A stretch of 64,000 nt of DNA from assembly GCA_041165505.1 (NCBI GenBank), contig JBEANH010000001.1:12021-76020 (forward strand), given 5' to 3'. Source of the DNA: Chloroflexota bacterium. GTDB lineage: Bacteria; Chloroflexota; Chloroflexia; Chloroflexales; Roseiflexaceae. A model generated the notes under the pieces. It made no database searches. It was not told where the DNA came from and saw only the letters and a list, made by a program, of their open reading frames with translations. Made by a program: the position numbers and the translations under genes. Of this stretch, positions 30,674 to 48,359 are shown piece after piece; position 1 is the stretch's first letter, and every line of letters starts with the position of its first letter.

Positions 30674-31735
30674 TTATTTGCTGGTGTATCCAGCGGCAAC
30701 GAGTAGCTCTGCATTCAAGATGGCGCCCCCGGCAGCGCCGCGGATCGTGTTGTGAGACAAGACCACCATGCGCAGTTCGTTGATGGTGCAAGCGCGAATA
30801 CGTCCAACTGAGACTGACATTCCGTTGCCGAGGTCGCGATCTCGGCGCGGTTGAGGCCGTTCAGGGTGAGTGTGGAGCACGATGGCTTGGGCAGGTGCGC
30901 TCGGTAATGTACGTACCAAGGCTGGCGCTTGCCACGTTTCGTACAACCGTACGGCGTCTTCACTTGTGATGCCTTTGGCTGACTGAACAGAAAGGAGTGC
31001 GGTGTGCCCGTCAATGACGGGAACCCTGGTGACTTGGGCACTGATGCGTGTGGTGGCGTGATGGATGCTCCCTGCTTGGTAGGCTCCGAGAATTTTGCCG
31101 GGCTCTGTTTCGATTTTCTCTTCCTCGGTTCCATTTGCAATGTTGGGGACGATGTTGTCAATGATGTCGAGGGATGCTACACCCGGGTATCCTGCTCCTG
31201 ATACTGCTTGGAGTGTTGCTGCATGCACATGTGTCAACCCTACTGCGTCATAGAGTGGTTTAAGCGCCATTGCTATGCCAATCACCGAACAGTTCGGATT
31301 GGTGACGAGTGCACCACGCCAGCCACGCTGTTTACGCTGGTGGTCAATCATGTTGACGTGCTCCGGATTCACCTCTGGGATAACGAGCGGGATGTCGGCT
31401 GTCATGCGGTACGCCGATGCATTTGAACAGACGGCGGTGTGTGCCGCCCAAAGTGGTTCGAATTGCTTGGCTGCATCGGTGGGAAGTGCAGATAATGCAA
31501 TGGCAACATCGGCGACACGATCACTCGGTTGCACAATCATGTTGGCAATGTGTGCTGGTGGTGTACCATCTAAAATCCAGCGTACGAGCTCTCCATATGG
31601 GCGCCCGATGGTGCGATCTGAGCCTGTGAGTACGGCAATTTCAAACCAGGGGTGATTCGCCAGGAGTTGTATCATGCGCTGACCTACTGCTCCTGTAGCT
31701 CCGAGGATGGCAATAGGAATTCGCTTGATGGTCAT
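30674..31735 (-). CDS. asd: Aspartate-semialdehyde dehydrogenase
   Basis: 353 aa with the ILGATGAVGQ NAD(P) motif and the active-site NPNCS. Confidence 0.9.
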   Translation of the reverse strand: MTIKRIPIAILGATGAVGQRMIQLLANHPWFEIAVLTGSDRTIGRPYGELVRWILDGTPPAHIANMIVQPSDRVADVAIALSALPTDAAKQFEPLWAAHTAVCSNASAYRMTADIPLVIPEVNPEHVNMIDHQRKQRGWRGALVTNPNCSVIGIAMALKPLYDAVGLTHVHAATLQAVSGAGYPGVASLDIIDNIVPNIANGTEEEKIETEPGKILGAYQAGSIHHATTRISAQVTRVPVIDGHTALLSVQSAKGITSEDAVRLYETWQAPALVRTLPSAPAQAIVLHTHPERPQPRRDRDLGNGMSVSVGRIRACTINELRMVVLSHNTIRGAAGGAILNAELLVAAGYTSK

Positions 31736-32259
31736 TGAGTACCTCCATATGCATAACGATACACCATGTGTAGTGCATCTATTTCTTGATTATCGATGTA
31801 CAAGAGTGCCGGTTCCTGCGCGTATTCATGAAAACCATGCCGGTGATACAGCGCGATAGCCCGTTGCTGAGTCACTGTCACACTCAATTTTAACATCCGC
31901 AATTGCTGATGTTCGCCATGTGCAATCACTGCATGGATTAATTGAGCCCCGTAGCCACGACCAGTATACGACGGTGCGACAAACATACCCCATATGATAC
32001 CGCAGTGGGCCATCTTGTCAGAACTATCGACACGGCATCCAACCATCCCAACGAGCGTGTCGTCTCTGGCGATCACAAACAGGGCATCAGTGCCCGTCGC
32101 AGTGCGGCGACAAAGTTGTGTCCATGACTCGTCGTTCGCCTGCGCCAGCTGTGGCACACTCATTGCAAATGCATGTGGTTCACTACGGAGTGCTTCATGC
32201 CGCAGGTGTGCTAATGCATACCCGTCACTAGGTAAAATACGTCGCACCGATGGAGACAT
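31732..32259 (-). CDS. GNAT-family N-acetyltransferase
   Basis: 175 aa with acetyl-CoA motif A (VAPSYTGRGYGAQLI). Shows a 4-nt overlap with the asd start and lies 2 nt after the lysC stop. Confidence 0.8.
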   Translation of the reverse strand: MSPSVRRILPSDGYALAHLRHEALRSEPHAFAMSVPQLAQANDESWTQLCRRTATGTDALFVIARDDTLVGMVGCRVDSSDKMAHCGIIWGMFVAPSYTGRGYGAQLIHAVIAHGEHQQLRMLKLSVTVTQQRAIALYHRHGFHEYAQEPALLYIDNQEIDALHMVYRYAYGGTQ

Positions 32260-32261
32260 AA

Positions 32262-33659
32262 CTACGCCAACGCCAATTCGTGGAGTGCTTTGACGGCAAC
32301 ATCACCATCCGATGCAGCTACCACAATACTAATCGAACATTCCGATGAACCTTGTGCGATAACCAAAATATTGACTCCGGCATCTGCGATTGCAGCAAAG
32401 ACGCGTGCGGCCACCCCAGGTCGTTCGTGGATGCCCACGCCAACCACTGTCACGATAACTACATCATCGCGCGATTTGATTTGATCGATGTCGCCACGGG
32501 CGATTTCATGACGCATGGCTGCTTCGAGACTGGTGACCACGGCACGGGTCGAGGTATTGGGTACTACAAAGCAGATGCTCTGTTCGGATGATGCTTGCGA
32601 AATCATCAGCACGTTTGCCCCTGCCTGCGCAACTGCACTAAAGGTGCGTGCTGCCACTCCCTGTACGCCGATCATGCCGCGCCCTTCCACGGTAATCAGA
32701 TTCATGTTGCGGATAACGGTTACTGCCCGGATGGCGTGTGTGGTTGGCTCTGCAATGCGAGTGACCAACGTCCCGGGATGGCTCGGATTAAACGTATTGC
32801 GAATCCGAATGGGAATGCCGCGCTCAATCACAGGACGAATGGTTTTGGGGTGGAGTACTTTGGCACCAAAGTATGCGAGTTCGCTCATTTCGGCATATGA
32901 CAGATGATTGAGGACTTTGGCGTGACTGACGAGGCGCGGGTCAGTGGTCATCACACCATCGACGTCGGTGTAAATGTCTACTTCATCGGCGTCGAGTGCT
33001 TCACCAAAGATAGCTCCGCTATAGTCGCTCCCGCCACGGCCAAGCGTCGTTACTGCACCTTCGGCGGTTGCGCCGATAAAGCCAGTAATGACTGGGGTAA
33101 TCCCTTGGGCGAATAGTGGCACTATTTTGGTGCGGATCTGGTCGCGTGTGTGGGGGTAGATCGGTGCACCATTACCGAATTCCGCCGTCGTCAGTACAAC
33201 CGTGTGTGCATCAACCACTGCTGCACGAACACCGTTCGCATTGAGTGCAGCAGCAACCAAGCGTACACTCATACGCTCGCCGAGGCTTGCAATGGCGTCG
33301 AGCGCCCGTGGAGAAGCTTCACCGAGTACGCTTACCGCCTGCACCAGCAATTCGTATTCAGCAATCAGTGCATTGATTTCATCTGTAACCGCTGGATTGG
33401 GTGCACCACAAAGTTCAGTGAGTGTGGTCAAGTGGCGTTGCCGTAGCGATTCTGCGTTGGCCGTTGCTCCTGCTCTGTCCCCATGAGCTGCCGCATTGGC
33501 TCCATTGAGGAGTAAGTCGGTGACTCCGCTCATCGCAGACACAACAACCGCCACATGATCCCAAGATTGTTTCTGATCGTGGGTAATCTGGCAAAGCATG
33601 CGTATTGCATGCGTATTCCCTACCGATGTACCACCAAACTTCATTGCTAATATGCTCAT
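32262..33659 (-). CDS. lysC: Aspartate kinase (monofunctional, two ACT domains)
   Basis: 465 aa with N-terminal KFGGTSV, the amino-acid-kinase fold and C-terminal tandem ACT regions. Confidence 0.9.
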   Translation of the reverse strand: MSILAMKFGGTSVGNTHAIRMLCQITHDQKQSWDHVAVVVSAMSGVTDLLLNGANAAAHGDRAGATANAESLRQRHLTTLTELCGAPNPAVTDEINALIAEYELLVQAVSVLGEASPRALDAIASLGERMSVRLVAAALNANGVRAAVVDAHTVVLTTAEFGNGAPIYPHTRDQIRTKIVPLFAQGITPVITGFIGATAEGAVTTLGRGGSDYSGAIFGEALDADEVDIYTDVDGVMTTDPRLVSHAKVLNHLSYAEMSELAYFGAKVLHPKTIRPVIERGIPIRIRNTFNPSHPGTLVTRIAEPTTHAIRAVTVIRNMNLITVEGRGMIGVQGVAARTFSAVAQAGANVLMISQASSEQSICFVVPNTSTRAVVTSLEAAMRHEIARGDIDQIKSRDDVVIVTVVGVGIHERPGVAARVFAAIADAGVNILVIAQGSSECSISIVVAASDGDVAVKALHELALA

Positions 33660-33675: not shown

Positions 33676-34737
33676 TTATGCTAAGCCTAACCATTTCGTG
33701 ATTGCACGCATGTCGGCTGGGATGGGTTCGGGGGCTGCAAATTGGTCAACTGCAGTGTTCGGGTCTTTGAGTCCGTGACCAGTGAGAACTGCTACATACG
33801 TACCCTGTGGGTCAACACGTTTTTGCTCGACGAGCATGCGCAAGCCGGCGACGCCTGCTGCGGATGCCGGTTCGATAAACACCCCTTCGAGGCGTGCCAA
33901 ATCGCGCCACGAACTGAGAATCTGTGCATCGGTGACCGCATCAATGATGCCCTCGGATTCATCGCGTGCGCTTAATGCGTAGCACCAGCTTGCCGGATTG
34001 CCAATCCGAATTGCAGTGGCGATTGTTTCTGGATACGCAATCGGAGCACCCTGCACGATTGCTGCTGATCCTGCGGCTTCGAAGCCGAGCATGCGCGGTA
34101 ACGCGCTGATTTTGCCAGCACGGTAGTACTGCATGAAGCCGTGCCAGTAGGCAGTGATATTACCGGCATTCCCAACTGGCAGACAAAGCCCGTCCGGTGC
34201 CCGTCCAAGCACGTCACAGATTTCGTATGCGGCCGTTGCTTGTCCATCAATGCGATACGGATTGACCGAATTCACCAGGGTGAGCGGATGTGCATCGGAG
34301 ATTTCACGCACGATGCGTAGGGCGTCGTCGAAGTTGCCATCAATGACGAGCAGGCGCGCACCGTACATCAGTGCTTGAGCGAGTTTGCCGAGGGCGATTT
34401 TGCCTGAAGGCACCACAACCACGGCTTCGATACCTGCGCGGGCTGCATAGGCCGCTGCACTCGCTGACGTGTTGCCCGTAGACGCGCAAATGACACAGGT
34501 CGAGCCGGCTTCCACCGCTTTGGCAACCGCCATTACCATGCCACGGTCTTTGAATGAACCGGTAGGGTTCATGCTTTCTAATTTGACATAAAGTTCTTTT
34601 ACGCCTACCGCAGCTGCTAATTTGGGCACTGGCATGAGTGGCGTGTGCCCTTCGCTCAACGTCAGCAGCGGGGTGTTGGCTGTGATTGGCAAAAACGCAC
34701 GATAGTCTTCAAGTAGCATATGCACCCTTTCAATCAA
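33676..34737 (-). CDS. thrC: Threonine synthase
   Basis: 353 aa with the PLP-lysine motif [21 protein letters not shown]. Confidence 0.9.
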
Positions 34738-34766
34738 AAACCCCCCTCCCTGTTTGGGAGGGGGGC
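34736..34766 (-). terminator. Attenuator terminator directly upstream of the thrC RBS
   Basis: On the minus strand it reads GCCCCCCTCCC-AAACA-GGGAGGGGGG followed by TTTTT. It lies in a divergent intergenic region, so no upstream gene needs terminating. Confidence 0.75.
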
Positions 34767-34781
34767 GACCACATCGTCAGC

Positions 34782-34889
34782 CTACAAACAACCACCTCGC
34801 CAAACCAACCTTCCCACACTTGTGGTGCGGGTAGTCATAGTTGTAGTGGTAGTTGTGAGTGTCAAAAAAGACACGGGATGATTGTTCAT
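34782..34889 (-). CDS. Thr-rich leader peptide (35 aa) of the thrC operon
   Basis: My hand translation gives MNNHPVSFLTLTTTTTTMTTRTTSVGRLVWRGGCL*. Eleven of the 35 codons are Thr, including six consecutive. The ATG lies 6 nt after a -10 box, so the transcript is apparently leaderless. Confidence 0.65.
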   Translation of the reverse strand: MNNHPVSFLTLTTTTTTMTTRTTSVGRLVWRGGCL

Positions 34890-34895
34890 GCCTGT

Positions 34896-34924
34896 ATGAT
34901 ACGACGCTCACGCACGACTGTCAA
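34896..34924 (-). promoter_or_regulatory. Sigma70-like promoter TTGACA-17-TATCAT for the thr leader
   Basis: On the minus strand, TTGACA is at 34924-34919 and TATCAT at 34901-34896, with an exact 17-nt spacer. Confidence 0.55.
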
Positions 34925-34995
34925 CTTTGAAATGGTACTGTCACGATGAGGGTGAAGTGGCTATAATAAGGATATGTCGAAGTAAAGGTGCTGCT

Positions 34996-46952: not shown

Positions 46953-46981
46953 TTGACACATTTTCGTCGTGTGCATATACT
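46953..46981 (+). promoter_or_regulatory. Consensus-like promoter TTGACA-17-TATACT
   Basis: The hexamers and spacing are exact. The -10 lies within a perfect 12-bp palindrome TATACTAGTATA (46976-46987), which also presents TATACT on the minus strand. Confidence 0.55.
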
Positions 46982-47060
46982 AGTATACATGGACGAAGAC
47001 GCACATTTATGCCAGTTAAATAGCTGTTGACGACCACGTGCTCCTCGATGTTACTCGACG

Positions 47061-47102: not shown

Positions 47103-48359
47103 ATGCGTTTTGTATCACAGCTGATGCAGCTTCCCGTGCTTGCCAAAGATGGGAGCGAAATTGGACGTTTGCATGATGTAATTGTGCGGATTGACAATCG
47201 CCAGTACCCGCCAATCGCGGGGCTTGTGGTGATTGATCGTCGGCGTCCATTTTTTATCCCCGCCACACATCTCACCGACATTACCGAACGTACAATACAG
47301 CTCAATACGACCAATGTGAATGTGCAACGCTTTGAACGTCGCGACGGTGAAGTGTTGCTAAACAAAGATGTGCTCGATCATCAAATCATTGACATCAACG
47401 GTCGGCGTGTGGTGCGTGTCAACGACATTCAAATGGCGCAACTCGACCAAGAGTACTGCGTGGTTGGGGTAGACATCAGCCCGCAGGCGCTGATACGGCG
47501 CATTTTGCCCCGCTCGGCATCACCGCGTATTGGCGGGCGTCAAGTGATCAGTTGGGCAGATGCGCAATATCTGGCCAGTGCGGCTCCTGTGCAACTCAAA
47601 GTCTCCTACAACCGCCTTGCCGAGCTGGGTGCGGTGGATTTGGCACGTATCGTGGATGCCTTGTCGCTCCGAGAAAGTGCCGAGATTGTGGCGGCACTCG
47701 ACGACGAAACCGCGGCCGAAACACTCGAAGAAGTCTCCGATGAACGCCTCGTAGACCTACTCGAAGACATGGATCAGGAACGTGCGGCTGATATCCTCGA
47801 AGAGATGACGCCCAACGCTGCTGCAGACCTGCTCGAAGAGCTCGACGATGATGTGGCCCAACAAATTCTGGCACGCATGGAGCCCGAAGAAGCCGAAGAC
47901 GTGAAAGAACTCATGGCCTACGATGAAAATAGCGCTGGGCGGACGATGACCACCGACCTGATTGTGGCCTTCCCCGATGACACGGTGCAATGCGTGATAG
48001 ACGAGCTACGCGCCCGCGACGAACTCCCCGAACCATTCACCGAAATCTATGTCGTTGAACGCCGAGATACTGACACAAGCCAACATCTTGGTCTCCCACT
48101 CGTTGGCATTGTGCGCATCCCAAAGCTGCTCGTGAGTGATGCCACGGTGCAGTTACGTGACATCCTCGAAGCCGTTCCCACCATTGCAGCTGATGATCAT
48201 ACTGACGTTGCTGCACGAGTACTCGGTGAATACAATCTGACTGCTGTGCCTGTACTCGATGAACATGGTGCACTCATCGGCGCAGTGAGTGTGGATGACG
48301 CATTAGCGCAGCTGTTGCCTGATATTTGGCTCCGGCGCGGTTCACGTAATTTCGGTTAA
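47103..48359 (+). CDS. Soluble PRC-barrel + MgtE N-domain + CBS-pair protein (no membrane domain)
   Basis: GAGGAGG RBS. The N-terminal region is PRC-barrel-like. It is followed by acidic MgtE_N helical repeats (EDMDQERAADILEEM, AADLLEELDDD) and then a tandem CBS pair. There are no hydrophobic helices. Confidence 0.75.
   Translation: MRFVSQLMQLPVLAKDGSEIGRLHDVIVRIDNRQYPPIAGLVVIDRRRPFFIPATHLTDITERTIQLNTTNVNVQRFERRDGEVLLNKDVLDHQIIDINGRRVVRVNDIQMAQLDQEYCVVGVDISPQALIRRILPRSASPRIGGRQVISWADAQYLASAAPVQLKVSYNRLAELGAVDLARIVDALSLRESAEIVAALDDETAAETLEEVSDERLVDLLEDMDQERAADILEEMTPNAAADLLEELDDDVAQQILARMEPEEAEDVKELMAYDENSAGRTMTTDLIVAFPDDTVQCVIDELRARDELPEPFTEIYVVERRDTDTSQHLGLPLVGIVRIPKLLVSDATVQLRDILEAVPTIAADDHTDVAARVLGEYNLTAVPVLDEHGALIGAVSVDDALAQLLPDIWLRRGSRNFG

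Follow-up and report, generated by a model that had tools for sequence, protein, structure and literature searches.

Directly upstream of the threonine synthase gene thrC in a 64,000-nucleotide (nt) stretch of Roseiflexaceae DNA (contig JBEANH010000001.1, positions 12,021 to 76,020; hereafter the window, whose own numbering is used throughout), the minus strand carries a short open reading frame (sORF) crowded with threonine codons and, after it, an intrinsic terminator. Judged by comparative sequence analysis, this leader is probably a ribosome-mediated transcription attenuator through which charged tRNA-Thr would govern an operon of thrC, aspartate kinase, a GNAT acetyltransferase and asd (aspartate-semialdehyde dehydrogenase). 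A preliminary description, made from the letters of this DNA, had proposed a ribosome-mediated threonine attenuator, and the proposal gains support from the presence of the element in 38/38 related loci, from synonymous exchange among its threonine codons, from alignment gaps in threes and from competing folds. The lineage, which had looked non-proteobacterial from the letters, is indeed Roseiflexaceae, phylum Chloroflexota; the nearest genomes are Roseiflexaceae metagenome-assembled genomes (MAGs), with a best ThrC identity of 95%.

A candidate threonine attenuator upstream of thrC

The 35-codon reading frame with 11 threonine codons, six of them consecutive, had been picked out in the preliminary description, and all of it is present (Table 1). 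A binomial distribution at the local base composition gives a probability of 5.6e-6 for at least 11 threonine codons out of 35. Across all six frames of the 64 kb, the cluster is the most extreme stop-free 14-codon window for any single residue (11/14), and its only equal is its own valine-rich mirror on the plus strand. The sORF is enriched in codons for the very amino acid whose synthesis the downstream operon serves (thrC, aspartate kinase, asd). We propose these codons as the sensing codons and, largely, as region 1 of a four-region leader, in which the predicted pairing begins at 34856. Region 2 is a G-rich segment, and regions 3 and 4 are the left and right arms of the terminator.

In the proposed mechanism, transcription would begin at or near the AUG of the sORF, which would be translated as a leaderless message of 35 codons. 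With Thr-tRNA plentiful, the ribosome would pass the 11 threonine codons to the stop codon and cover region 2 (alternatively, after ribosome release, region 2 would pair again with the threonine codons of region 1); the GC-rich 3:4 hairpin and its U-tract would then form, and RNA polymerase would terminate 21 nt before thrC. With Thr-tRNA scarce, the ribosome would stall on the threonine run and occupy region 1. Region 2 (GUUUGGCGAGGUGG), now free, would capture the terminator's left arm and loop (CCCCUCCCAAAC), block the terminator and allow read-through into thrC.

Could the codon cluster be a product of chance or of annotation, either a low-complexity ACN repeat or the shadow of a valine-rich open reading frame (ORF) that is the real feature? 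Plus-strand ORFs at 34720-34881 and 34686-34949 do include the valine run VVRVVIVVVVVV, and either could be mis-called as a gene. The valine run is an arithmetic mirror, the reverse-complement image of ACN codons, and we rejected the plus-strand ORF as a feature in its own right; on that strand the hairpin precedes the run and no U-tract follows, which leaves no attenuator geometry. The binomial value given above and the conservation of the element across 40 loci speak against chance as well. Because of this conservation and the covariance-model results given below, we regard this explanation as refuted, its residual probability being negligible.

Conservation across thrC loci

The comparison set consists of 160 thrC loci from species-representative genomes and metagenomes. 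A threonine-rich sORF with a GC-rich terminator occurs directly upstream of thrC in every one of the 38 loci whose ThrC is 72-95% identical and for which enough upstream DNA is available. The preliminary description had staked its reading on the run being kept in relatives, and kept it is, in 38/38. The sORFs of the relatives have 23-38 codons, with 6-11 threonines in the best 14-codon window, and the loci that bear the leader come from MAGs labelled Roseiflexaceae, Roseiflexus, Kouleothrix, Ca. Ribeiella and others. The element is found in none of about 116 more distant thrC loci, including those of Herpetosiphonaceae, Ardenticatenales, Dehalococcoidia and Bacillota. A threonine-rich window upstream of thrC in two loci, L115 and L116, was rejected as an out-of-frame artefact inside the upstream gene. 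A protein search and a cluster look-up for a cultured carrier gave MAG or metagenome proteins only.

In 18/18 genome-derived leaders an upstream ATG or GTG begins a frame that holds the threonine codons and stays open to a stop codon before the terminator. The codons themselves are exchanged synonymously (ACT 65, ACC 61, ACA 22, ACG 22, with ACT over-represented relative to neighbouring genes), alignment gaps in the sORF region are multiples of three, and the peptides resemble one another in the threonine run only. It follows that the sORF shows what a translated sensor with an unimportant product should show: throughout the 38 relatives it is the regulatory codons, and not the peptide, that are conserved. 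Some runs contain isoleucine codons (TTITTTTIT in L007, TTTITTTT in L017, TTITAT in L095), and in some leaders a methionine codon interrupts the run. In the more distant subgroup (group B, below) that methionine codon belongs to the covarying stem of an inner hairpin (CGCGAUG/CAUCGCG), and it may be structural rather than regulatory.

The genes downstream are kept along with the leader. Aspartate kinase follows thrC in nearly all leader-bearing loci with DNA past thrC, and the order thrC-ask-(GNAT)-asd holds wherever the DNA reaches far enough, with the exception of L015, where asd was not found.

The same comparison bears on whether the sORF might be an independent small gene for a threonine-rich micropeptide, or a small RNA with its own terminator, thrC being expressed from elsewhere. 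Promoter, ORF and terminator do form a self-contained unit, and in other bacteria attenuators can give rise to trans-acting RNAs and peptides (PMC6614838, PMC7298713). Against this, the peptide is unconserved outside the threonine run, its length ranges over 23-38 residues and its C-terminus toggles between WRGG... and a stop; the unit is found immediately upstream of thrC in 38/38 loci; and only 21 nt, which hold the Shine-Dalgarno (SD) sequence, separate the U-tract from the thrC ATG, with no promoter-like site there in a consensus scan. We consider an independent gene or small RNA highly improbable.

Two subgroups of one family

The family as defined here comprises 40 loci and falls into two subgroups. 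Group A consists of the window, L001-L006 and L081-L086; here dinG is the divergent neighbour, which it is in this subgroup only, and the spacer between terminator and thrC is 20-21 nt. Group B consists of L007-L017 and L087-L103, most of which have a 5' untranslated region (UTR) of 28-40 nt and a terminator-thrC spacer of 25-89 nt. In one locus, L007, the start codon lies 6 nt past the -10 box, yet the sequence groups with B.

A covariance model built from group B only matches the window at 34736-34865 on the minus strand (39.2 bits, E=2.6e-10), which is its sole match in the 64 kb, and it recovers all group A loci at 31-50 bits. The same model finds nothing significant in loci L018-L080 or L105-L160. 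Because the group B model matches group A but not the distant loci, the two groups are homologous and the family is restricted to this clade.

Relatives resembling Kouleothrix and Ribeiella show a second long hairpin, placed between the attenuator terminator and the SD of thrC (L008:3923-3987; L012:3931-3990; L017:3921-3982; L093:1441-1491; L097:1414-1490). The fold of the 103-nt spacer has an energy of -28 to -46 kcal/mol. Each hairpin is made up of 7-nt units in tandem together with the complements of those units (CAGATTG/CAATCTG, GAAAATT/AATTCTC or TTTTGGA/TCCAAAA); the sequence of the unit varies by genome and the architecture is constant.

Terminator and predicted competing folds

An intrinsic terminator lies between the sORF and thrC, the first structural gene. 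The hairpin GCCCCCCUCCC-AAACA-GGGAGGGGGGU (34766-34740) is followed by T5 (34740-34736) and has an energy of -23.4 kcal/mol; it begins 16 nt past the TAG of the sORF, and 21 nt lie between its end and ATG 34719 of thrC. The preliminary description had placed it about 15 nt after the TAG and about 20 nt before thrC, with TTTTT behind it, and this layout stands; contrary to what had been stated, the stem is not all G/C: nine pairs are G-C, one is U-A and the closing pair is G-U. The terminator is present in every relative, at -14 to -23 kcal/mol, with a GC-rich stem of 9-10 base pairs and T3-T6.

The presence of this terminator matters for an alternative in which Thr-tRNA is sensed in the same way and the output is mainly translational or Rho-dependent, stalling serving to remodel the ribosome-binding site (RBS) of thrC or to uncouple transcription from translation. 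There is a precedent for it in the leaderless polycysteine sORFs of mycobacteria, which unmask a downstream RBS (bioRxiv 10.1101/834739), and in the window the SD of thrC comes directly after the hairpin. The SD itself, however, lies outside the hairpin, the group B terminator is too far from thrC (45-89 nt) to mask the RBS there, and a canonical intrinsic terminator is conserved in all relatives. Such an output is improbable, and transcription attenuation is the reading followed here.

Relative to dinucleotide shuffles, the fold of the 181-nt leader has a z-score of -4.2. When the whole leader is folded to its minimum free energy (MFE), region 1 (for instance ACAACUACC at 34856-34848) pairs with region 2 and encloses an inner hairpin, and the 3:4 terminator forms downstream. 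The inner hairpin is the best-covarying helix, its group B counterpart having double changes in 5/8 pairs, and is a candidate pause hairpin that might serve in polymerase pausing. For the terminator state as a whole, 88.8% of cells are paired in group B (20 sequences), as against 46-51% in slid controls, with nine pairs changed on both sides and a covariation score reached by 0/500 shuffles; in group A (13 sequences) the figure is 82.6%, with slid controls at no more than 54%. Group B helices 1 and 2 are 83-85% paired, 7/15 pairs being changed on both sides. Pairing of region 1 with region 2 into an anti-antiterminator that includes the regulatory codons is found both in the MFE folds and in the covariation.

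A stalled ribosome was mimicked by masking the sORF to 12 nt past a threonine codon and omitting region 4 as not yet transcribed. Folded in this manner, the window leader pairs GUUUGG-C-GAGG-U-GG (34805-34792) with CC-CCUC-CCAAAC (34763-34752), which comprises the terminator's left arm plus its loop; the energy of the 2:3 pairing is -23.0, versus -23.4 kcal/mol for the terminator. The 2:3 pairing is the predicted fold with region 1 masked in at least 15 of 18 leaders, and this masked fold competes with the terminator, as in the mutually exclusive structures that the preliminary description had suggested looking for. The equivalent in group B is GUGGGAGGG with CCCUCCUG(C), again from the masked fold. 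Antiterminator cells are paired at 95% in group B and 92% in group A, slid controls reaching 50-69%.

The strand of this predicted antiterminator is not the one first suggested. The preliminary description had named GGGAAGG, just after the threonine run, as the partner of CCUCCC in the left arm; that segment varies freely in close relatives, and the folds use GUUUGGCGAGGUGG (34805-34792) instead. We rejected GGGAAGG (34815-34809):CCUCCC as the main antiterminator after finding GGAAAGG, GGCATAG, GGGAGAT and GAGTACA in its place within the subgroup. In contrast to that freely varying segment, TTGG[C/T]GAGGTGG is conserved in group A, and its sole variable base is the predicted bulge. A change at this base switches an arginine codon to a stop codon (WRGG... 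versus W*). This toggling between arginine and stop indicates that region 2 is conserved at the level of RNA and not of peptide.

Two single events are consistent with a three-way constraint among the paired regions. In L087 a G-to-A change in region 2 occurs alongside a synonymous ACC-to-ACU change in region 1, and the altered region 2 base can still pair with its region 3 partner, a U. L091 has U changed to C in region 3 and A to G in region 4, and here the altered region 3 base still pairs with a G in region 2.

Constraint at the RNA level, seen in region 2 and in the terminator arms, would also be expected of an RNA-only switch in which the sORF is untranslated and a metabolite, a tRNA (in the manner of a T-box) or an RNA-binding protein reads the ACN repeats and the G-rich segment. 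Group B, where no obvious SD precedes the sORF, could be seen in the same light. Yet the third codon position is free to vary and indels keep to multiples of three, the threonine codons sit in an open frame from an upstream ATG or GTG in 18/18 genome-derived leaders, and the start codon stays at the predicted +1 throughout the window's subgroup. Nor is there a match to an Rfam riboswitch or T-box (in the window to E=10; in 17 related loci at the gathering score), and the leader, about 150 nt long, is too short for a T-box and shows no Stem I in its fold. We judge an RNA-only switch very unlikely.

Leader promoter and predicted leaderless start

The promoter of the leader agrees with the consensus at 11/12 positions, and a TTGACA-17-TAnnnT promoter is present in 18/18 genome-derived leaders. 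As first described for the minus strand, TTGACA-17-TATCAT, an ATG 6 nt past the -10 box and the lack of an SD are all there. Six bases (ACAGGC) separate the -10 box from the sORF ATG at 34889, whose A is the canonical +1. Because the ATG falls at this position, there is no room for an SD before the sORF. The start codon lies 6-9 nt past the -10 box in the window, L001-L007, L081, L082 and L084-L086, which takes in every group A member whose contig reaches the promoter. From this geometry the transcript is predicted to be leaderless, with a 5' end no more than a base or two from the AUG.

Several observations weigh against the attenuator as proposed here. Leaderless initiation is a prediction from promoter geometry, and in group B the element has a 5' UTR of 28-40 nt without a clear SD. 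The stop codon has no fixed place with respect to region 2: L002, L005 and L007 have it before the region, L004 and L006 within the region, and the window after it. Compensatory covariation in the antiterminator is nil in groups A and B, both strands being nearly invariant, and in most leaders the energy of the 2:3 duplex is not below that of mononucleotide shuffles of region 2 (z about -0.3 to -1.8). Because the duplex energy is no better than that of the shuffles, the specific register of the antiterminator pairing is not proven. This pairing, a product of fold prediction, would appear to be the least secure step of the mechanism.

Comparison with known attenuators

The layout had been said to mirror attenuation at the enterobacterial thrL, and it matches element for element. 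Like thrL (RF00506), the leader has a short sORF packed with threonine codons, in some relatives (L007) mixed with isoleucine codons as in E. coli thrL; the threonine codons pair with a downstream G-rich segment that is predicted to compete for the left arm of the terminator; and the whole stands directly upstream of a threonine-biosynthesis operon that includes aspartate kinase. A cmscan alignment spans the whole Thr_leader model (positions 1-118), with the elements in the same order. The score of the window is nevertheless 15.3 bits (E=4.2), as against a gathering score of 55, and none of 17 related loci reaches the gathering score of any Rfam family. The differences from thrL are the host phylum (Chloroflexota), an operon of thrC-ask-GNAT-asd rather than thrABC, an sORF of 23-38 codons rather than 21, and, in the window's subgroup, an sORF that is predicted to be leaderless and not led by an SD. 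The window element probably functions like thrL, outside RF00506, and its origin is probably independent.

The Thr T-box (RF00230, Bacillota) likewise senses the charging of tRNA-Thr and sets a terminator against an antiterminator upstream of threonine-related genes. The window leader differs from it in its length of about 150 nt, in containing a conserved ORF, and in having no Stem I, specifier loop or T-box sequence; the window is not matched by RF00230 at E values to 10, and the fold is without its domains. Nor does any Rfam riboswitch model match the window region at that limit, the only Rfam hit being the sub-threshold Thr_leader.

The preliminary description held threonine attenuation combined with a leaderless leader to be unusual in a lineage that looks non-proteobacterial; leaderless leader peptides are less unusual than that, and are already known in Deinococcus deserti, Streptomyces lividans and mycobacteria (PMC4007540, PMC8079986, bioRxiv 10.1101/834739). 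In D. deserti, fourteen leaderless leader peptides were proposed from maps of transcription start sites (PMC4007540). In S. lividans, trpL, leuL, ilvL and thrL-thrS were proposed as such from transcriptome data, the thrL before thrS, a weak candidate and the one threonine case among them, having two threonine codons and no clear terminator (PMC8079986). The present element resembles these in a start codon that coincides with the start of the transcript (predicted here), in an sORF rich in the cognate amino acid, in a hairpin with or without a U-tract after the sORF, and in its place upstream of genes for amino-acid biosynthesis or tRNA synthetases. It differs in that transcription starts were mapped there and are predicted here, in phylum, and in the lack of any sequence relationship. 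The polycysteine sORFs of mycobacteria were experimentally shown to attenuate operons by unmasking an RBS (bioRxiv 10.1101/834739). This "Cys ribulon" shares with the window a leaderless sORF and a codon run for one amino acid, on which stalling remodels the RNA for an operon of the cognate pathway; its output is translational, whereas the conserved intrinsic terminator and U-tract point here to transcriptional attenuation.

A survey of Actinobacteria reports no RNA element upstream of threonine operons (PMC1262725). In a literature search of incomplete coverage, no attenuator or leader peptide came to light for Chloroflexi, Roseiflexus, Chloroflexus or Kouleothrix; earlier comparative-genomics surveys may list candidates. 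Whether the 40 loci make up an independently evolved, Chloroflexales-specific family of threonine attenuators outside Rfam, one homologous switch driven by leaderless initiation in one subgroup and from a 28-40 nt 5' UTR in the other, strikes us as an evenly balanced question.

Genomic setting and the start of thrC

The dinG gene diverges from thrC on the opposite strand, its likely start being ATG 34996 behind AAAGGTG. Only two promoter-like sites are found in 900 nt of the divergent region, that of the leader and one facing dinG. The gap between the two genes had been given as 258 nt; it is 276 nt when measured from ATG 34719 to ATG 34996, and 258 corresponds to a thrC start at TTG 34737, which falls within the T-tract of the terminator. 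We consider ATG 34719, with its SD GAAAGGG, the likelier start of thrC. The nearest public ThrC cluster, at 353 residues, corresponds to a start at TTG 34737, and ATG 34719 gives 347 residues; the ThrC of other relatives, listed at 351 residues, may be over-extended in the same manner.

Table 1. Leader, operon and neighbouring features in the window (first coordinate is the lower one)
Feature	Position	Strand	Details
-35 hexamer TTGACA	34919-34924	-	with 17-nt spacer
-10 hexamer TATCAT	34896-34901	-	TATCAT, TATTAT, TATGAT or TATAGT in relatives, spacing unchanged
Leader sORF, 35 codons + TAG, MNNHPVSFLTLTTTTTTMTTRTTSVGRLVWRGGCL	34782-34889	-	ATG 34889 is the predicted +1; TAG 34784-34782
Threonine-codon cluster	34821-34862	-	11 Thr in 14 codons, six consecutive at 34856-34839; proposed sensing codons
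Inner hairpin inside sORF, CCCGCAC/GUGUGGG and flanking pairs	34810-34834	-	MFE fold
Region 2, G-rich segment	34788-34807	-	GGUGGUUGU (34796-34788) and UGGUUUGG (34807-34800) pair with Thr codons (anti-antiterminator)
Predicted antiterminator strand within region 2, GUUUGGCGAGGUGG	34792-34805	-	predicted pairing with 34763-34752
Region 3, terminator left arm, GCCCCCCUCCC	34756-34766	-	shared, with loop bases, by the predicted antiterminator
Region 4, terminator right arm GGGAGGGGGG(U) and U-tract	34736-34750	-	U-tract 34740-34736
thrC start	ATG 34719	-	SD GAAAGGG 34731-34725, between terminator and ATG
thrC (threonine synthase), first regulated gene	33676-34719	-	TIGR00260, E=5.7e-96
Aspartate kinase, operon gene 2	32262-33659	-	TIGR00657, E=1.5e-124
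GNAT acetyltransferase, distal operon gene	31732-32259	-	
Aspartate-semialdehyde dehydrogenase (asd), distal operon gene	30674-31735	-	
Promoter-like site facing dinG, CTGTCA-18-TATAAT	34938-34967	+	back to back with leader promoter

A scan of the window for leaderless sORFs with consensus promoters yields a sole further case, at 46953-47030 on the plus strand. A TTGACA-17-TATACT promoter is followed, 7 nt past the -10 box, by ATG 46989 and a 13-codon ORF, MDEDAHLCQLNSC, about 75 nt upstream of a gene of some 420 residues that starts near 47104 behind GAGGAGG. This is a candidate leaderless sORF without an amino-acid run.

Implications

The proposed mechanism is a textbook one, and the gain is therefore one of breadth and not of a new principle: classical leader-peptide attenuation of threonine biosynthesis would extend to Chloroflexota, a phylum in which almost nothing is known experimentally of gene regulation, and for this element we found neither an RNA-family model nor a paper. 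The 40-locus family and its working covariance model can be used to annotate sORFs of this kind and to correct thrC starts placed inside the terminator. If the family is indeed one independently evolved switch with both modes of initiation, threonine alone would gate the common enzymes of the aspartate pathway (aspartate kinase, asd) in this lineage. The two subgroups would then form a natural pair in which to study the coupling of leaderless (70S) initiation to RNA polymerase during attenuation. The family's split into leaderless and leadered members, within one set of homologs, would be a modest and useful natural experiment on ribosome loading.

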